In this document: piece by piece, positions 4,583 to 24,434 of the stretch
Layout: the number at the start of each line of letters is the position of its first letter
How positions within the stretch are numbered: the first letter of the stretch is position 1
DNA from: Candidatus Adlerbacteria bacterium
GTDB taxonomy: Bacteria; Patescibacteriota; Minisyncoccia; Phycocordibacterales; SBAW01
NCBI GenBank assembly: GCA_903900775.1
Contig: CAIUOD010000001.1
Coordinates: forward strand, 1 to 49,147
Direction of reading: 5' to 3'
DNA length: 49,147 nucleotides
Notes under the pieces: model-generated
Told to the model about the DNA's origin: nothing
Seen by the model: the letters and a program-made list of their open reading frames with translations, nothing else
The model's database searches: none
Translations under genes and position numbers: made by a program

Positions 4583-5947
4583 ATGGTTAAAAAAATAATT
4601 TCGCGTTCAGCAGTATCTCTCGCATTAACAAGTTTTATTCTCGCGGGCCTCTTGGGCCTCGCGCCGATTCCCGCCGCGGCCGCAACGGTATCGATTAGCT
4701 CGTGGTGGCCAACCAATGGGGCGCACATGCAGGGCGTACAGCCTTTCAAAGTGATGATCTCGGGGCTCGACGTGTCTCAATACGATATGTTTTGGCAAGT
4801 CGACGGTGGTCAATTGAATTCGATGAACAACAACTACACCGGCTATCAACATAAGGAGGCGTCTGTGGATGTGAGCGGGTGGAAATGGCACGGTAGCGGC
4901 CCGTACGTTATTAATTTTGTTGCGCGTCAAGGCGGCACGGTCATCGCGCAACAATCAGAGACTATCTATATTGATAATAATTTGCCAGTGGCCTCTGCAG
5001 TCCCTGCAAAAGTCACCACTGCCGCACCAGTTGTAACGACTGCATCAACTATACCAGCTACTACGCCGGCAGTAGCGGCGCTTGTCTCGAGCAATAGTAG
5101 CTTGTACGTCATTCCGAATTCCGAGGCAGCAGAACAGGCGGTCATCTGGGCGAGCAGTAATCCGACCGGTGCCATAGCGATGAAGGTGCTCGCTTCGCAG
5201 TCAACCGCCTCGTGGTTCGGTAATTGGAACAGCAACGTAGGGAGCGATGTACATGCCCTCGTTGTCGCCGCGGAGGCCGCAAACAGCATCCCAACGCTCG
5301 TCGCCTACAATATTCCTGAGCGCGATTGTGGTGGATTCTCTGCGGGGGGTGCGAACAATCCTGCTGGTTACACCTCGTGGATACAATCATTCGCGCAAGG
5401 TCTGGGTTCCTCCAAGGCGATTGTTATCTTAGAGCCCGATGCGATCGCGGATATAGGCTGCCTCTCGTCGGCCGACCAAGCGACCCGTTTGAGCCTGCTC
5501 GGGAATGCCGTTTCGACGATCAAAAAAGATCCAAACGCAAAAGTCTACATCGACGCCGGCCATTCAAACTGGATAGACGCGGCTACTATGGCGCGTGAAC
5601 TCTCACAAGCGAATGTCGCGCAGGCTGACGGCTTCTCTCTGAATGTTTCGAACTTCATGTCGAACAGTAGTGAGATTACCTATGGTCAACAAGTCAGTTC
5701 ACAAATTAGCGGTAAGCACTTTGTGGTGGACACCTCACGCAATGGCAACGGCTCAACTGGACAGTGGTGTAATCCCTCGGGGATGGCGATAGGCACGAAG
5801 CCCACGCTCCAGACGGGCAACGCGCTTGTCGACGCCTTCCTCTGGATTAAGACGCCGGGCGAGAGCGATGGCCCATGCAATGGTGGCCCGTCCGCAGGCA
5901 TGTGGTGGCCGAGCTATGCACAGCAGTTAGTACAAAACGCGCACTAA
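4583..5947 (+). CDS. Secreted glycoside hydrolase family 6 (cellulase-type) with uncharacterised N-terminal domain and Thr/Ala/Pro linker
   Basis: Signal peptide; GH6 motifs YNIPERDC, ILEPDA, YIDAGH, VDTSRNG, WCNP, WIKTPGESDG. Confidence 0.9.
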   Translation: MVKKIISRSAVSLALTSFILAGLLGLAPIPAAAATVSISSWWPTNGAHMQGVQPFKVMISGLDVSQYDMFWQVDGGQLNSMNNNYTGYQHKEASVDVSGWKWHGSGPYVINFVARQGGTVIAQQSETIYIDNNLPVASAVPAKVTTAAPVVTTASTIPATTPAVAALVSSNSSLYVIPNSEAAEQAVIWASSNPTGAIAMKVLASQSTASWFGNWNSNVGSDVHALVVAAEAANSIPTLVAYNIPERDCGGFSAGGANNPAGYTSWIQSFAQGLGSSKAIVILEPDAIADIGCLSSADQATRLSLLGNAVSTIKKDPNAKVYIDAGHSNWIDAATMARELSQANVAQADGFSLNVSNFMSNSSEITYGQQVSSQISGKHFVVDTSRNGNGSTGQWCNPSGMAIGTKPTLQTGNALVDAFLWIKTPGESDGPCNGGPSAGMWWPSYAQQLVQNAH

Positions 5948-8635: not shown

Positions 8636-10181
8636 ACGGATTTTTTTGTGAAATAGGTGCCGACGCAGAGCGTAATTCTCCCTGTGCCACTCGAGTTGGG
8701 AGCGCGGCGCGGATAAACGGCAAGAACACGACGATGTTGAGAAGCGCCCACGCCGTGTTGTTGATGAGCGAGGCAGAAAATCCTTCTCTTGTGAGTGCCA
8801 CTATAATGCCAATGGCGACCACGCCAACATAGGCGATATGCCATCTCACCAATGGCAAAAAATTTCCCTGCACCCAGTTTTTGTCTGTAATCGAGAACGC
8901 CGAACGTTGGAAGGTTGCCGCAGAGTAGAGAGCGCGCAGATGGATATTAAATCCGCCCATAGAAAATCCGAGGCTCGAAAAGGTGAAAGTAAAATTTGAT
9001 GATCGTTGAATAACGTACAAAGTAAAGAAGAAGTACGGCAAAAAGATTGCGGCAAGAAGCATGCCGTTTATGAGTACCGGTACCATCCCGGTGTAGAAGA
9101 AAACAATGGGCAGGAGGGCATCGATCACGACAAAAAGCCCCGACAAATAAAAACTTGCCGAAGAGAGATATTGGATGCGTTGCGCCCACGAAAGCCCGCG
9201 CATAAATAGCGGATTGTAACGGAAGATGACATCGAGCGCGCCACGTGCCCAACGAAATTGCTGTTTAGAATAGGAGAGCAGGTCTTCGGTTGCCAAACCC
9301 TCGGCTAAGACCTCACCCAGATAGATCGAGCGGTATCCTTTAGCGTGCATGAGGAGGCCGGTGATAAAATCCTCGGCGATTGATTCGGTGCACATGCCAC
9401 CGACCGAGAAGAGAGCTTCGCGGGAAATGAGCATGTTGGTGCCGCACATGGTGGCGCTGTTGAGACGATTTTTACCTTTACAAATCGGCCCAAAAAAAAG
9501 CTCCTGCTGCTCCCACGAACTTTTAGTCAGATAATTCTCGGCATAATTTTTATAGAACTGCGGCGTCTGAACAAAGCCAACTTTGGGGTCGACGAAATAC
9601 GATGCAGTCTTCGCCAAGAAATCGGAATGCGGCACATGGTCGGCGTCGAATATTGCCACGAGGGGATTGCTCGTGAGCCGGAGTGCGTTGTTGATGTTGC
9701 CCGCTTTGGCGCCACCAGGCACCGTGCGCGTGATGCAGTGCACACCCAAGCTCGAGGCGAGCGCTTCTATCTCGCGCCAATTGCTCTTGTCGGCCACATA
9801 GCCATCGTTAAGGATGTGGATGTTAAAATTGGGATAATCCATGGCGCGTGCGGCCACAACCGTCTTCCGTACCATCTCGGTCGGCTCTCCTGCGACCGTG
9901 ATAAAAACGTCTGCCGGTGGGTGGTGCTCAGCGTCTCTGGGTGCACTATATGACGTCTCCCATACCGTGTAGAGAAATGTTAGTACCTGCCAGATATGGA
10001 AAACCTCTCCCGCGATAAGGAGCGAGAAGAGCAGGCGATTGCCGATGGGAAAGAAGAACGCAAGTACAAAAAAGTAGGTTACCGCAAAGAGCATGTTGAG
10101 CGCGAGGAGCTCTTTGGGAGGATCCGTTTTGAGGAAATCCTTTCGCATCTCCACATAATCATTTTCGCTGTAGGGGCTCAT
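8613..10181 (-). CDS. Cellulose-synthase-like processive GT2 (BcsA-like, no PilZ domain)
   Basis: KAGNIN, DADH, QTPQ, AED and QQFRW (QxxRW) motifs, flanked by TM helices; ends shortly after the last TM. Confidence 0.85.
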   Translation of the reverse strand: MSPYSENDYVEMRKDFLKTDPPKELLALNMLFAVTYFFVLAFFFPIGNRLLFSLLIAGEVFHIWQVLTFLYTVWETSYSAPRDAEHHPPADVFITVAGEPTEMVRKTVVAARAMDYPNFNIHILNDGYVADKSNWREIEALASSLGVHCITRTVPGGAKAGNINNALRLTSNPLVAIFDADHVPHSDFLAKTASYFVDPKVGFVQTPQFYKNYAENYLTKSSWEQQELFFGPICKGKNRLNSATMCGTNMLISREALFSVGGMCTESIAEDFITGLLMHAKGYRSIYLGEVLAEGLATEDLLSYSKQQFRWARGALDVIFRYNPLFMRGLSWAQRIQYLSSASFYLSGLFVVIDALLPIVFFYTGMVPVLINGMLLAAIFLPYFFFTLYVIQRSSNFTFTFSSLGFSMGGFNIHLRALYSAATFQRSAFSITDKNWVQGNFLPLVRWHIAYVGVVAIGIIVALTREGFSASLINNTAWALLNIVVFLPFIRAALPTRVAQGELRSASAPISQKNPYDSIRKN

Positions 10182-10208
10182 AAAAATATAATGCTGGATT
10201 GTTGATGA

Positions 10209-11429
10209 TTATTGTTTGAAGGCGTTCATGGGAATGCTGGCGGCCAGATTGGGCAGAAGATTGTTATAGAGCGCGATGCCGAACCACGCCCAGTTGTCGT
10301 CGTAGTACGAGAGCGACTTCTTCCACTTATCGGCACCCGGGTCGTAAAGGAAAACAAGTTTTTGGCTATAGACGTCTTGCGCCAGGTTGGGTGCCGCGAG
10401 CATGAAATAACCCACAGTGCCCCCATACATGGCAGGGGCCTCAGAGGCGATTACCACCGTGCCGTCATGGGTGTACGTTGACCCGAGTGTGTGGTTCTCG
10501 CTCCATTGCGAAGAGAGGAACGAAAGCATGTTGAGTGTGGTGATGTCGCGCGGATCTTTGAACCATGCCCAATCAAGCGCGAGATGGTACGGCACCCGGA
10601 GCGCATCGAAGCCGAAGTTGGTCGTATCTGCGCCGCCCGGTATCGCGATGAGTGCGCCGGTTGCGCGGTTAATTTCTACCCAATCGGGCGGTAGATTCGC
10701 GCTCAGTTTTTTATCGAGCGTCGAGGAAATACTTTTCTGCAAGACGGTGTAGGAGCTGTCCGCTAGTTTGCTCCACGGATGCGCCGGGTCGACGAGTGCA
10801 AAAATGCGATACGCCGCCGGATTGAGATAGGAGGGATTGATTGCTGCGTAGGTATTCCCTGAAGTTGTCTCAATATTGTCGGCGGTGAGGTAGGGGGTGG
10901 GGCCAACCTCGACAACTTCTTTGTTCCAAATATCCCCGATAATGCCACGCGCAGAGTCGAGATATTTAGGATCTTGCCAGCGCGCGTACGCAAAAACGAG
11001 CGAGAGAGCGATATCGGTATCGGCATCGCTCGCGCTTGTTTCGCCACCCTGAGAGATGAGCACGCCGTAGGAGCCGTCTGGTTGCTTACCCCACAGCCAG
11101 GCAAAGAGATGGTCGCCGGTGTGGTAGATGTTGGTCTGGGTCCAGTGCCACGCGCCATCAAATGTCTGTTTGTCGCCCATCCACACGGCGCGCAACATGG
11201 TGTAACTCTGCCCCTCGGAGGTAGTGACGTTGCCGCGCTGTGGGTCTAGCGTGCGGTAGCTACCCGCTTCGACATATTCATTTTTATAGGAGTACCACGT
11301 GGCGTTGAGTAGTTGCACCGGGGAGAAGATAATCGGCACATTGCCTCGGCCGCTCTCTAAATACAACACTGCACCAGCGATGAGCAGGGCAAAGCAAAGA
11401 AACACCCAGCCGAGTAATCGGGTCACCAT
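10209..11429 (-). CDS. Glycoside hydrolase family 8 (BcsZ-like endoglucanase), N-terminal membrane anchor
   Basis: TTSEGQSY, SASDAD, NPSY, FDALR and YYD motifs. Confidence 0.88.
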   Translation of the reverse strand: MVTRLLGWVFLCFALLIAGAVLYLESGRGNVPIIFSPVQLLNATWYSYKNEYVEAGSYRTLDPQRGNVTTSEGQSYTMLRAVWMGDKQTFDGAWHWTQTNIYHTGDHLFAWLWGKQPDGSYGVLISQGGETSASDADTDIALSLVFAYARWQDPKYLDSARGIIGDIWNKEVVEVGPTPYLTADNIETTSGNTYAAINPSYLNPAAYRIFALVDPAHPWSKLADSSYTVLQKSISSTLDKKLSANLPPDWVEINRATGALIAIPGGADTTNFGFDALRVPYHLALDWAWFKDPRDITTLNMLSFLSSQWSENHTLGSTYTHDGTVVIASEAPAMYGGTVGYFMLAAPNLAQDVYSQKLVFLYDPGADKWKKSLSYYDDNWAWFGIALYNNLLPNLAASIPMNAFKQ

Positions 11430-11443
11430 TGTTGTTCTATAAT

Positions 11444-11626
11444 TTACCTATGTCGAGTAAACATTCTGGCGAGAAGTTGGCGCCCAACCAATAGGAAGCC
11501 GAACAGTCCCAGTACCACGGCCGCTGCTAATAGAGTTTGGATTTGCGCTGGCGCGAGATGCTCGCCCACCGCGTATATGTTGTCGGGGGCGACTTTAGTG
11601 GTGGTGAAAAAGAGTGATTCGCGCAT
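11444..11626 (-). CDS. Small single-TM hypothetical protein
   Basis: 60-aa ORF filling the gap in a co-oriented operon, with a hydrophobic stretch. Confidence 0.5.
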   Translation of the reverse strand: MRESLFFTTTKVAPDNIYAVGEHLAPAQIQTLLAAAVVLGLFGFLLVGRQLLARMFTRHR

Positions 11627-11636
11627 ATTTATTTTT

Positions 11637-12761
11637 TTATGATTGAGGTATAAAGGTCGTCCCCGTCTGGCGCTGTCTGAACACCCACACTTTCGAGAGG
11701 GTAAAGTTGGCTATGAAGGTGAACACGGTGGTGATGGCAAGTGCCACAAGATCGTACACGCCCACACCGACGAGGAAGTTCATCATCGCGACGTTAATCG
11801 TCAGCGAGACCGAGGTCATCGCATAGAAGCGCACCACTTCGCCCAGGGTTAGTCGCGTGCGCAGGCCGAAGGTCCAGTAGCGGTTAAGCAGGAGCGAGGA
11901 GACAGTGCCCACGAGGAACGAGAAGAGTTTGGCAATCGTCAAATGGTCGGCGAAGAGGGCGGTCGCGCGCGTGAGATAGAGATACGCGGTGACGTCGAGG
12001 AGTGTGTTGAGCACACCCACACTCATAAACTTGAGTGCCTCCTTGTGGGTCACCAGCCCGAGCTCGCCCCGATAGAGTTCGATCATCTCGGTAAAGGCGC
12101 GGAGGATGACAGTGAATTTTGCGCCGGTAGGAGAGCCGGCTTTGCGCGGCAAATGCGAAACAGGAACTTCTTTTACTGGAACCAATTTGCGGGTGAGGCG
12201 TATCAGTGTCTCGGCGCTTATCATCGCGCCTTTTGACTGCAGCGGTAGCGACTGCACCTCTTCGCGTTTAAATAGTTTAAAGGCGCAATCAATGTCGCGG
12301 ATCTTCAAACCGAAGAGTAGGCGATTGAGCCGATTCCAACCCCATGCATTGAGTAGGCGCATAAACGGGTCGCGGCGCGGCGCTCGATAACCAATAACCA
12401 CCGGGTACTCATCGAGATGTATCAAGAGATTTTGCAACTCGACGATATCAAACTGCAGATCCGCATCGGTGAAAAAGATGTACTCCATACGTGCTGCCGC
12501 AATGCCGGTCTTGAGTGCTGCGCCATAACCGCGATTGTGCGGATGATTTATGACGCGCACGACCGGATATTTGCGTGAGAAGTCTTCCGCTATTGACTGG
12601 GTATGGTCAGAGCTACCGTCGTTGACGACGATTATCTCGTACTCACCGACGTAGGGAGATTCTTCAACCGCGCGCATAGTATCGGTTATCGTTTGCCGAA
12701 TGTTTTCTTCTTCGTTGTAGGTAGGGAAGAATATGCTGAGCGATACTTTCTGTTGCTTCAT
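11637..12761 (-). CDS. Polyprenol-phosphate glycosyltransferase (DPM1-like GT2) fused to a GtrA-like domain
   Basis: PTYNEE, VNDGSSD, TDADLQ, DIDCAFKL; C-terminal 4-TM GtrA-like region (NRYWTF, SKVWVF). Confidence 0.88.
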   Translation of the reverse strand: MKQQKVSLSIFFPTYNEEENIRQTITDTMRAVEESPYVGEYEIIVVNDGSSDHTQSIAEDFSRKYPVVRVINHPHNRGYGAALKTGIAAARMEYIFFTDADLQFDIVELQNLLIHLDEYPVVIGYRAPRRDPFMRLLNAWGWNRLNRLLFGLKIRDIDCAFKLFKREEVQSLPLQSKGAMISAETLIRLTRKLVPVKEVPVSHLPRKAGSPTGAKFTVILRAFTEMIELYRGELGLVTHKEALKFMSVGVLNTLLDVTAYLYLTRATALFADHLTIAKLFSFLVGTVSSLLLNRYWTFGLRTRLTLGEVVRFYAMTSVSLTINVAMMNFLVGVGVYDLVALAITTVFTFIANFTLSKVWVFRQRQTGTTFIPQS

Positions 12762-20958: not shown

Positions 20959-21639
20959 ATGATGTCGATGCAACCCGCATTGAACACGTCTGCGATCGTG
21001 ACCTCCGATAGCCCCAAAGGGCAACAGGCCGTCGCGCTATTCCGTGCCCAATACAACAAAGTCGGGCTCGACGATGAAAGCGCCCAGTTGCTCAACGAGC
21101 ACCCCGGCTTCGCCGCCTACCTCGCGGCGGGCATCCGGCAGTTCTCGACCAAGGGGCCGGTCTTTCCCGTCTATCTCAAAATCGAAGTCGGCGGCAAGTC
21201 CAAAGAGGAACTCCTCGCGGAATTGCAGTCCGGCGGTTTTTTCGTCTCGGACTGGGCGAAAGACATTATGTCCAGGCCCGCGTGGAAGCCGGGCGAGAAG
21301 GAGAGGGTGAAGTTCGCCCGCGTTAAAGTGCGCGAGCTCGGATTCACGGATCCGAAGAATCTTCCGACGACTGCGCAGATCTGGGCTCGCATCCAGGAAT
21401 TCGGCCACGCGCTCTGCGAGCCCGGCGACGGCCCGGCCATCCGGCGGGTGCTCACGGACCAGTCGCGCGACGACTACTTATGGGCCGCGATGGAACAAAT
21501 CACGGACTCCGCTGGCGGCCGGCGCGTCTTCTGCGTCAAGCGGGGCGGCGGCGGTGAGCGGTGGCTCGACGCGCGTTGGGCCAATCCGAGCCGCGGATGG
21601 GATCTCGACAGCGAGGTCGTGTTCCGTCTCCGCAAGTAA
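20959..21639 (+). CDS. DGR target (variable) protein, probable C-type-lectin-like C-terminal fold
   Basis: The last 45 codons are the VR matching the downstream TR. SD spacing favours ATG 20968 as the start. No signal peptide or TM is evident. Confidence 0.92.
   Translation: MMSMQPALNTSAIVTSDSPKGQQAVALFRAQYNKVGLDDESAQLLNEHPGFAAYLAAGIRQFSTKGPVFPVYLKIEVGGKSKEELLAELQSGGFFVSDWAKDIMSRPAWKPGEKERVKFARVKVRELGFTDPKNLPTTAQIWARIQEFGHALCEPGDGPAIRRVLTDQSRDDYLWAAMEQITDSAGGRRVFCVKRGGGGERWLDARWANPSRGWDLDSEVVFRLRK
21502..21635 (+). repeat. DGR variable repeat (VR)
   Basis: 134-bp ungapped match to 21950-22083 with 21 mismatches, 20 of them opposite TR adenines. Confidence 0.97.
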
Positions 21640-21686
21640 CTTCGAACTTTGGGCGCTTAGTTCTAACCCTGAGCCCCTTAACCCTC

Positions 21687-21710
21687 GGCCCTGCACTTCG
21701 GTGCAGGGCC
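21687..21710 (+). terminator. GC hairpin downstream of VR (terminator and/or DGR homing hairpin)
   Basis: GGCCCTGCAC-TTCG-GTGCAGGGCC (10-bp perfect stem) followed by TCTTTTTGTT. Confidence 0.8.
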
Positions 21711-21949
21711 TCTTTTTGTTACACTACAGAGCGGTAATAGGTGCATACGTGGGCGGCAAGGATTGCCTGCGGCCGAATCCGACGAACTTACATTGAGCGT
21801 TTCTTCGATTGCGGTTGGAGAAAGAGTAATGTGAGCAAGTCTAAAAAAAGAAGATACTTGGTGCGCGATACTGGGGCATTATCATGCCGAATGAGATACA
21901 GTCCCGAGAGTATTCAAAGGGTGGTGGAACAGAAGGTGCCGCGCACAGG

Positions 21950-22083
21950 ACGGACTCCGATGGCAACCTGAACGTCTTCTACGTCAAGCGGAACGACGAC
22001 GGTAAGCGGTGGCTCAACACGAATTGGGCCAATCCGAGCAACAAATGGGATCTCGACAACGAGGTCGTGTTCCGTCTCCGCAA
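21950..22083 (+). repeat. DGR template repeat (TR)
   Basis: AAC/AAT/GAC-rich copy of the VR with 36 adenines; diverges from VR after ...CGTCTCCGCAA. Confidence 0.97.
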
Positions 22084-22095
22084 CTCTCTTCATTT

Positions 22096-22135
22096 CTCCT
22101 CCGTCAGCGTCGCTGTTCGGGGGAGTTTTGTTTTG
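22096..22135 (+). terminator. Hairpin plus T-tract immediately 3' of TR (possible 3' end or spacer structure of the TR RNA)
   Basis: CTCCTCCG-T-CAGCG-T-CGCTG-TT-CGGGGGAG followed by TTTTGTTTTG; overlaps the avd stop codon. Confidence 0.5.
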
Positions 22136-22451
22136 CGAGTTGTCCCGACCAGCCGCCGAGCATCTTACCTATCTCGTCCATTTTTGACGAAATTTCGATA
22201 TATTTTTTATCCCGCAATGATCTGCTTTCCCACAAGACCATAAGCAATAAAGAAGAGGTATTGAGTTTCCGTATTGCAAGGCGTATGTAGGGTAATTTCT
22301 GATCCCTTGGCAAAAAAGCTGCGGCTGATACTTGCTCCATTATCTCAATAAATAAGGTGTCTATCCTCTCGCCAACGGTATAGCGATGAATTTTAGGGAG
22401 CGTAGAATATATCTCATGCCACAGCAAATAAGCTTGTTTGATTCGCTCCAA
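22104..22451 (-). CDS. avd: DGR accessory variability determinant (Avd/bAvd-like four-helix bundle)
   Basis: 115 aa with LPK.HRYT.GERID...EIGKMLGGW, typical of the Avd family; lies between TR and RT on the opposite strand. Start codon uncertain. Confidence 0.85.
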   Translation of the reverse strand: MERIKQAYLLWHEIYSTLPKIHRYTVGERIDTLFIEIMEQVSAAAFLPRDQKLPYIRLAIRKLNTSSLLLMVLWESRSLRDKKYIEISSKMDEIGKMLGGWSGQLAKQNSPEQRR

Positions 22452-22485
22452 AACGGGCAGGAGATTCCTGCGGGGGGGGGTCCAC

Positions 22486-23463
22486 TTGAAGCGGCTCGCT
22501 CATGCCTACCAAGATATCATTTCTATCGAGAATTTACTTCTTGCCTGGCGGGAGTTTCTTAACGGTAAAAGAAACAAGGAAGATGTGCAGGAGTTTGAAT
22601 ATAGGCTCTTCGACAACATACTCGCGCTCCACCAGGAACTGAAAAACAAGGTTTATGTCCATGGTCCGTATTATCACTTCCGCATCAGCGACCCAAAACC
22701 GCGTGATATCCACAAAGCCACCGTGCGCGATCGGCTTCTACATCATGCTATCTATCGAATTCTGTACCCATTCTTCGACTCGAAGTTCGTAACCGATTCG
22801 TATTCCTGCCGCATAAACAAAGGGACGCATCGAGCCATGAATCGCTTTCGCGATTTCGCACGCCAAGAATCTCGTAATCATACTCGCACCTGCTGGGTGC
22901 TCAAATGCGATATCAGAAAATTTTTCGCCAGTATCGACCAGGAAATTCTGATTAGGATTTTACGGAAGCATACCCAAGATGAAGAAACTCTCTGGCTTCT
23001 CGGCCAAGTGGTACGCAGTTTTAATTCCAGCAAAGAGGGGAAGGGCCTACCACTCGGTAATCTCACCAGCCAGCTTCTAGCCAATGTTTATTTGAATGAG
23101 CTTGATCAATTTGTGAAGCACAAACTCAAGGCGAAATATTACATCCGTTACGCCGATGATTTCGTGTTTCTTTCGCATGATAAAAGGTGGCTTGAAAGTA
23201 TTTTACCCAAAATCAGCGTTTTTCTTAAAGACGAGTTACGGCTTACACTGCATCCGAACAAAGTCTCTATAACCACCTTCGCCTCTGGAATCGACTTCCT
23301 CGGCTGGGTGCATTTTCCCGGCCACCGCGTGTTGCGAACCGCAACCAAGCGCAGGATGTTGAAACGGACAAGAGGACTTGAGCAAGATAGTCCAACAGTA
23401 CAATCGTATGTGGGGATGCTAAAGCATGGGGATGGCAAAAAACTTGCCAAAATGTTAAAGTGA
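22486..23463 (+). CDS. DGR reverse transcriptase
   Basis: KPRDI, RDRLLHHA, SYSCR..KGTH, LKCDIRKFF, GLPLGNLTSQ, YIRYADD, GIDFLG. TTG 22486 (MKRLAHAY) is preferred over 22438. Confidence 0.95.
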   Translation: MKRLAHAYQDIISIENLLLAWREFLNGKRNKEDVQEFEYRLFDNILALHQELKNKVYVHGPYYHFRISDPKPRDIHKATVRDRLLHHAIYRILYPFFDSKFVTDSYSCRINKGTHRAMNRFRDFARQESRNHTRTCWVLKCDIRKFFASIDQEILIRILRKHTQDEETLWLLGQVVRSFNSSKEGKGLPLGNLTSQLLANVYLNELDQFVKHKLKAKYYIRYADDFVFLSHDKRWLESILPKISVFLKDELRLTLHPNKVSITTFASGIDFLGWVHFPGHRVLRTATKRRMLKRTRGLEQDSPTVQSYVGMLKHGDGKKLAKMLK

Positions 23464-23468
23464 TATTA

Positions 23469-23820
23469 GCGCGTTGGGCAGCTACTGTTGGGTTTGTCCG
23501 CCCTAGGCGGATGAGGCCGGCAGAGGAAAGTCCGAACACCACCAGGCGAAAGCTTGGAGAAGGGTAGCAGGTAACCCCTGTCGTGCGCTCATGGCGGGCG
23601 CAAGGGGTGCGAACAGAGACGAGTCCCTTCAGTGGGAGTGAAACGGCAAAATCCCTGCTCGGGTGCAAGGCCGTACTCAACGCAACGCTGCGGAAGTTTA
23701 CCCTTCCGTAGCTTTAGCGAAGGAGGGTGCCGCTTGAGCTCTGGGGCGACCCAGGGCCCAGATAAATGGTTGCCTCGCCCGCCCAAGGCGGGCCAGACAG
23801 AATTCGGCTTACAGACGCGC
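23469..23820 (+). ncRNA. rnpB: RNase P RNA
   Basis: GAGGAAAGTCCG, GTGAAACGG, AGATAAATG and ACAGAATTCGGCTTA conserved blocks; P1 GCGCGTT/GACGCGC closes the ends. Confidence 0.92.
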
Positions 23821-23833
23821 GCGCCATTGTGTG

Positions 23834-24434
23834 AACGCCCCGCTTAACGCGGGGCGTTTGCCTTTCTACCCAAGAACCACCGGCTTTAGCCGGTGTGGGC
23901 GTTTCAAGGCGTAGCCCATGAGAAAATCACCGTGGTCGATATTACCAACCAACGGTGATTTTCCATGGCGAACAGACGTCTGTATCAGCAAACCCATGCT
24001 ACCTGGGTCTGCGACTATCACATTGTATGGTGTCCCAAGTACCGCGGGAAGGTACTCAAAGACCCCTACGTCAAACAAGAACTCAAGCGCATGTTCAAAC
24101 TCATAGCGCGGTGGAAGGATCTCAAAATCCACGCCTGGCACATTGGTGACGAACACATACACCTGTACGTTTCCATCCCACCCAAATATTCAGCCGCATA
24201 CATTATTCAAATCCTGAAAGGGAAGACTTCCAGCTGGCTGAAGAAGAAAACCAAGCAGTTTCCCCAGGGTACGCTTTGGGCACGCGGGTACTTCGTTTCC
24301 ACCATCGGCGGCAACGAGCATCAAATCAAGAGCTACATTAACAACCAGAGTCATCACCAAAAGGATATGCCGCAGTTGTTCTAGCCCCGCTACTGCGGGG
24401 CAGGTTAGAAACCGCCGGCTTTGTGCCGGCGGTT
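23834..24434 (+). mobile_element. IS200-like element (tnpA only) with hairpin ends
   Basis: Hairpins at 23834-23858, 23876-23898, 24384-24401 and 24410-24434 flank tnpA. Exact ends are uncertain. Confidence 0.75.
23965..24384 (+). CDS. tnpA: IS200/IS605-family Y1 HUH transposase
   Basis: YHIVWCPKYR, HUH motif EHIHL, KGKTS, LWARGYFVST, catalytic Tyr in YINNQ. Confidence 0.95.
   Translation: MANRRLYQQTHATWVCDYHIVWCPKYRGKVLKDPYVKQELKRMFKLIARWKDLKIHAWHIGDEHIHLYVSIPPKYSAAYIIQILKGKTSSWLKKKTKQFPQGTLWARGYFVSTIGGNEHQIKSYINNQSHHQKDMPQLF

Follow-up and report, generated by a model that had tools for sequence, protein, structure and literature searches.

Our analysis of the 49,147-nucleotide stretch of Candidatus Adlerbacteria DNA studied here (hereafter the window) shows that avd lies inverted between the template repeat (TR) and the reverse transcriptase gene (RT) of a DGR. 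This inversion is real, yet ordinary: the cassette is a member of the known B3 class, the layout of which is already in print. Given the comparative data presented below, we consider it probable that this is an unexceptional CPR-type B3 DGR in which the TR is produced as its own structured non-coding RNA ending at a U-run, with avd and RT being expressed divergently. The adenine signature of the TR and its variable repeat (VR), the identities of Avd and RT and the conservation of the layout in relatives were observed directly, while the transcripts that we propose are inferred from comparative sequence.

The cassette begins with a target gene of 226 aa (20959-21639, + strand, from the ORF list), for which a Pfam profile search returned no match at E≤1 and which carries the VR (21502-21635, +) at its 3' end. 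The VR aligns with the TR (21950-22083, +) over 134 nt, and the 21 mismatches between them comprise 20 at TR adenines and one at a T. An adenine-biased TR/VR pair, an RT adjoining the TR and a VR at the 3' end of a coding target, the features by which a DGR is recognized, are all found here. The order target(+), TR(+), avd(−), RT(+), which had been claimed in an earlier note on this DNA, is borne out by the ORFs and the TR/VR alignment. VR variants were absent from contigs of the four runs covering the VR, contigs being sequences from which rare variants are dropped.

The avd gene (22104-22451, − strand) encodes 115 aa when read from the TTG at 22451. In an HMM search this ORF matched NF033474 DivGenRetAVD (E 5.1e-15, 55.7 bits, which is below the curated cut-off of 80) and PF22296 bAvd (E 1.8e-9, 38.5 bits, below the cut-off of 40), and NF033474 was matched by all 38 of 38 sampled orthologous ORFs (best E 2.3e-22), so the suggestion that the minus-strand ORF is Avd proved correct. 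The corresponding Avd alignment (A7) holds 38 of 41 chosen ORFs, L154 having been left out for a stop codon and L141 and L033 for their longer aligned spans; a profile made from the 38 sequences found no Avd among solved structures, the only matches being designed helical proteins at E of about 0.2. The RT (22438-23463, +) matched RVT_1 (E 3e-25) and may start at TTG 22438 or TTG 22486. Its translation contains LGNLTSQ and YADD, and the SQ motif within LGNLTSQ is presumably a mark of DGR RTs. The avd TTG (22451) and the RT TTG at 22486 are separated by 34 bp, in agreement with the earlier note's description of divergent genes with roughly 35 bp between candidate starts, and the two ORFs would overlap by 14 nt if RT starts at TTG 22438. 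On the far side of the cassette, a bacterial RNase P RNA of class A (23466-23827; 102.6 bits, gathering score 100) begins 3 nt past the RT stop and is followed just downstream by an IS200-like Y1 transposase gene (23965-24384; PF01797, E 1.5e-33).

The layout was surveyed in two sets of relatives. The genome set consisted of the best 80 RT relatives from species-representative genomes (60-70% identical), the named members of which are Patescibacteria/CPR MAGs with the exception of L003 and L046. An avd gene inverted and head-to-head with RT was detected by tblastn with the window's Avd at 73 of these 80 loci; of the seven without a match, six have RT at a contig edge and L045 is the sole true miss with upstream DNA. 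A TR with adenine-biased mismatches, located on the RT strand and ending just before the avd stop, was found at 57 of the 80 genome loci, and at none of the 80 was a TR detected on the strand opposite to RT. At one locus (L040, 5009-5933) there is a second adenine-biased repeat pair downstream of RT (5791-5933 versus 5009-5151) that may be a second TR/VR pair. In the second, independent set of 80 metagenome loci, from which 22 with less than 400 nt of upstream sequence were excluded, avd was inverted and head-to-head with RT in 58 of 58. The genome from which the window comes also has a second DGR, on contig C6 (about 9575-12050, locus L083), with the same B3 layout (in locus coordinates, target 524-1147, avd 1603-2019 on the − strand and RT 1900-2991).

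There is precedent for this arrangement in the catalog of Wu et al. 2018 (Nucleic Acids Res 46:11, PMC5758913), main-text passages of which describe architecture B3 as TR-(avd)-RT, accounting for 90% of their CPR set and nearly absent elsewhere. A TR, a reverse-strand avd and an RT are what we find in the window, in the same order and orientation and with no layout difference from B3 as described in those passages, and an association with CPR/Patescibacteria is common to that set and to the relatives of the window. The earlier note had called the layout non-canonical and had proposed a survey of avd orientation in related CPR DGRs. In light of the survey, the description stands only against the Bordetella phage model and fails for CPR, where B3 is the cataloged norm (73/80 and 58/58 loci, and the passages of PMC5758913); the note had itself allowed that novelty would drop if the layout were already cataloged as common, which, going by the same passages, it is.

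Directly 3' of the TR, a short linker, TCTTCATTT (22087-22095, +), leads into a stem-loop and U-run (22096-22134, +) with arms at 22096-22103 and 22118-22125 and the U-run, TTTTGTTTT, at 22126-22134. The loop contains the stop codon of avd (22104-22106), and it was rightly claimed that avd is convergent with the TR and ends inside the hairpin. Directly after the TR, 51 of 57 relatives carry on the TR strand a stem of 6 bp or more with a T-rich run behind it, against a background of 13 in 285 random 110-nt windows drawn from the same loci. In the window the hairpin is GC-rich and the U-run follows at once, as in an intrinsic terminator; a title and abstract search found no relevant paper on a TR terminator in DGRs.

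A covariance model of this element (alignment A2) was built from the window and 44 relatives out of the 51 hairpin-positive loci, leaving out L008, L011, L029, L030, L031, L042 and L069, in which the scan had chosen a doubtful stem, and was used to align 67 matches from the genome set and 58 from the metagenome set. Compensatory changes were evident in nine of nine stem pairs, and 92% of cells pair compared with 63-64% in shuffles (0/500) and 39-62% in slid controls, figures that lean towards the model because alignments A4 and A5 were fitted to its structure. The covariation holds also in the metagenome set, which was not used for model building. According to passages of a preprint by Handa et al. 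(bioRxiv 10.1101/2023.10.23.563531), 207 of 278 Avd-containing DGRs, among them CPR elements, have a putative Avd-binding stem-loop immediately downstream of the TR, and the hairpin in the window is most likely a stem-loop of this kind. Together with the U-run, it is probably an Avd-binding element that doubles as an intrinsic terminator.

The region between VR and TR is also conserved. This non-coding spacer of approximately 300 nt was conserved in 63 loci by nhmmer, and contig depth spikes at 21867-21963, indicating that the spacer is common to many organisms. Our spacer alignment (A3) used 68 of 98 nhmmer hits, after a coverage filter and removal of two duplicates, and has 69 rows. Approximately 50 nt after the VR, a terminator-like hairpin that would serve the target gene (21687-21720, +) combines a perfect 10-bp stem and a TTCG loop with a T-run, and directly behind it is a putative extended −10 promoter of the TR RNA, TGTTACACT (21717-21725, +). 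The family consensus of this box in the 69-sequence alignment is TGnTAnAAT, with columns T12, A13 and T17 at least 90% conserved; the window's own −10 (TACACT) is weaker than this consensus. We know of no characterization of CPR promoters. We infer that the TGnTAnAAT box is the TR RNA promoter. A candidate promoter further along (TTGGTG...TATCAT, 21858-21884) was rejected, as this stretch corresponds to a helix (H4, below) with compensatory changes.

RNAalifold and pair counts on A3 predict two local leader helices, H1 (21750-21758 with 21761-21769) and H2 (21790-21810 with 21813-21832), and a three-way junction just 5' of the TR (21861-21946), all on the + strand. In the junction, a long-range helix, H3 (21861-21872 with 21935-21946; compensatory changes in 10 of 12 pairs), ends 4 nt before the TR and encloses H4 (21875-21879 with 21884-21888) and H5 (21901-21908 with 21915-21922), each with compensatory changes in five of five pairs; one further isolated pair in the junction also shows a compensatory change. 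Over the whole leader, 40 of the 46 pairs predicted by RNAalifold have compensatory changes, 94.1% of cells pair (compared with 74.4% in shuffles, 0/500, and 35-53% in slid controls) and double-change cells number 668 versus 196. In addition, a leader strand, AAAAGAAGA (21846-21854, +), is predicted to pair with the post-TR linker at 22087-22095 in a long-range duplex of 9 bp, eight of which can form in the window. In an alignment of 67 sequences (A6, the 69 rows of A3 less L015 and L029, which gave no model hit), 87.1% of the cells of this duplex pair compared with 79.3% in shuffles (0/500), with 41 double-change cells versus 9.5 and compensatory changes in seven of nine pairs. A 3-bp primer pairing candidate, leader UUG (21858-21860) with the TR-end CAA (22081-22083), was invariant and showed no compensatory change. 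No Rfam 15 family matched 21600-22500 at E≤5 beyond chance-level hits.

The scenario that we favor for these data is as follows. A separate non-coding RNA of some 400 nt would carry the TR, starting from the extended −10 promoter just behind the target gene's terminator and comprising a structured leader of some 220 nt ahead of the TR. After the TR, the 9-nt linker would pair back to the leader, to be followed by a stem-loop of the reported Avd-binding kind, and the RNA would end at the U-run, antisense within the 3' end of avd. The avd and RT genes would be expressed divergently from a control region of no more than 60 bp that includes a slippage-prone G9 tract. A structured leader located 5' of the TR would explain why avd can sit backwards directly after the TR. 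Two transcript alternatives had been offered previously, a TR RNA ending at the hairpin with separate divergent expression of avd and RT, or a TR-RT transcript reading antisense through avd; comparative sequence evidence favors the first and disfavors the second. Among the sequencing runs listed as containing this locus, none was of RNA.

Compatible with this scenario is the idea that avd is inverted for the purpose of antisense regulation, wherein transcripts converging from avd and the TR overlap and pair into duplex RNA, or hinder one another, and thereby tune mutagenesis. The stem-loop and U-run do lie inside the coding end of avd, with an overlap of 31 nt in the window and a longer one in relatives, whose avd stop is usually found 7 nt past the TR end. 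Furthermore, a hairpin and T-run on the minus strand after avd was found in none of the 57 relatives, and with no terminator-like site behind avd, its mRNA may run antisense into the TR. The overlap is, however, explained equally well by genome compaction in a genome of 756 kb, and we regard a regulatory purpose for the inversion as unlikely.

We view as distinctly improbable a Bordetella-like arrangement, in which a TR-RT co-transcript runs antisense through avd and the priming RNA, the equivalent of the phage spacer, lies on the strand opposite avd. Its appeal comes from the phage model, where, according to passages of the Handa et al. preprint, approximately 140 nt located 3' of the TR are essential for cis-priming. 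The window also has no strong sigma-70-like promoter for RT, and as intrinsic terminators are often leaky, read-through of the U-run into antisense avd is conceivable. Against such a co-transcript we note that: (i) the hairpin and U-run directly follow the TR in 51 of 57 relatives; (ii) the conserved U-run has no three-base periodicity, while beyond it conservation dips at every third base, matching the third codon positions of the avd motif GKMLGGW, and as only codon-like conservation is seen past the U-run that stretch gives no hint of a functional RNA on the strand opposite avd; (iii) pairing of the TR 3' end (GCAAC or GAAAC) with post-stem sequence was rejected, cognate combinations being no better than swapped ones (mean longest helix 5.29 versus 5.34, 112 sequences); and (iv) upstream of the TR there is a conserved, covarying leader with its own −10 box. 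That the layout stems from a local misassembly or inversion, or that avd is a chance non-Avd ORF, is hardly credible given that the TR/avd junction is spanned by Logan contigs X3 record 18 (21747-22425) and X4 record 25 (21710-22489) and the avd/RT junction by X3 record 19 (22415-23019), all with 0 differences, that the same layout occurs at 131 other loci and that NF033474 matches 38 of 38 orthologs. The Logan contigs are from four lake-water runs of one study and the source sample may be among these, making the comparative evidence the stronger argument against an artefact.

We also identified a feature of the avd/RT control region that may bear on how the cassette is expressed. The 34-bp interval separating the two TTG codons contains a G9/C9 homopolymer (22472-22480), and a simple repeat is present at this site in 135 of 137 distinct related junctions. 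A tract of G6 to G14, most often G9 or G10, accounts for 129 of these and other repeats for six, namely (GT)n in L027, L134 and L137, (GA)n in L036 and L152 and (CTGG)n in L068; the tract has decayed in the remaining two junctions, L065 and L124. In the window's own genome (755,718 bases in 41 contigs) there are only four G/C runs of at least 8, two of which are at its two DGRs. The other two (C7:47-54 and C21:532-541) are near contig ends, and neither adjoins an RT or avd homolog. Two metagenome contigs, L102 (G10) and L103 (G8), differ in tract length while their 350-nt flanks on both sides are 100% identical; among pairs that are at least 99% identical, the length differs in one of four and is equal in the other three. 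No tract-length variants were present in the contigs covering the region, a type of sequence that cannot show rare variants. At L032 (about 640-800) a run of N flanked by a long C-run comes right after a G12 tract, and this gap at the tract suggests that assemblers break there.

How the tract might act can be considered at two levels. A TAnnnT hexamer begins within 2 nt after the tract in 52 of 129 junctions compared with a background of 4.7%, a placement that fits with the tract lying in a promoter spacer. Alternatively, the tract may lie inside overlapping 5' coding ends of avd and RT. An ATG at 22386 is out of frame with RT at G9, and in the window G9 opens neither of the ATG-initiated ORFs (avd or RT) while G8 would open both; the copy on C6 also has G9, and there both ATG-initiated ORFs are open. 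With regard to a translational switch, the 129 junctions showed no in-frame enrichment, the frame being open at the observed length in 41 for avd and 18 for RT, compared with 52 and 56 for avd and 36 and 37 for RT at plus or minus 1 tract length.

We tentatively put forward a two-part proposal, namely that the CPR template RNA is circularly permuted relative to that of the phage and that the cassette is gated by the slippage-prone repeat between avd and RT; taken together, we judge these somewhat more apt to fail than to hold. Title and abstract searches found no relevant paper on a permuted DGR RNA or on a link between DGRs and homopolymers or phase variation, and main-text passages of Wu et al. 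(PMC5758913) make no mention of a homopolymer, promoter, intergenic or upstream RNA. If the gating part is true, one cell line could hold one mutator off and one on, and the repeat tract hints that random on-off switching may extend to targeted hypermutation itself. All known DGR priming biochemistry concerns the phage element, in which the essential RNA is 3' of the TR, and this cannot hold for the window if its RNA ends as we propose. A CPR DGR could be reconstituted around a concrete and testable RNA, defined by its leader, long-range duplex and terminator-like end.

Simple sequence repeats are found between divergent promoters or in 5' coding ends at the SSR contingency loci of Haemophilus, Neisseria and Campylobacter. 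A slippage-prone tract that holds its place within a short control region and a repeat unit that can be exchanged (G, GT, GA or CTGG) are likenesses to those loci, and the length difference in one otherwise identical pair would be a further one. The DGR tract differs from them in that in-frame states are not enriched, in being known here from sequence alone, in having an uncultured CPR bacterium as host and in that the gated function would itself be a mutator.

The comparison with the DGR of Bordetella phage BPP-1 bears on the other part of the proposal. Passages of Handa et al. (bioRxiv 10.1101/2023.10.23.563531) give the BPP-1 gene order as mtd-avd-TR-brt, with avd upstream and co-oriented, and the order of elements in the phage RNA as upstream strand, TR, Avd stem-loop, primer strand, stop-duplex strand, small stem-loop, single-stranded ring and RT-binding stem-loop. 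Two likenesses to this RNA, as it is described in those passages, are apparent in the window: the covarying stem-loop just downstream of the TR, a position at which the phage stem-loop binds Avd, and the duplex of 21846-21854 with 22087-22095, for which the window's upstream strand lies approximately 100 nt before the TR. By the same account, the primer strand, stop duplex, thumb ring and RT-binding stem-loop of BPP-1 are all 3' of the TR, whereas the structured domain of the window is 5' of the TR and its RNA appears to end after a single stem-loop, leaving no counterpart 3' of the TR to the functional spacer RNA of approximately 140 nt that holds the phage primer, thumb ring and RT-binding stem-loop. 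Read from its 5' side, the order in the window is primer-like strand, H3 5' strand, the small H4 stem-loop, conserved single strand, the H5 stem-loop, H3 3' strand, TR and Avd stem-loop, which by analogy resembles a circularly permuted phage RNA. In that case, the junction H3-H5 and the strand before it would be the module responsible for holding RT and priming cDNA, moved from 3' to 5' of the TR and tied to the TR 3' end by the 9-bp duplex, and a permutation of this kind, if true, is what would allow an inverted avd right behind the TR, in place of the upstream, co-oriented avd of the phage element.
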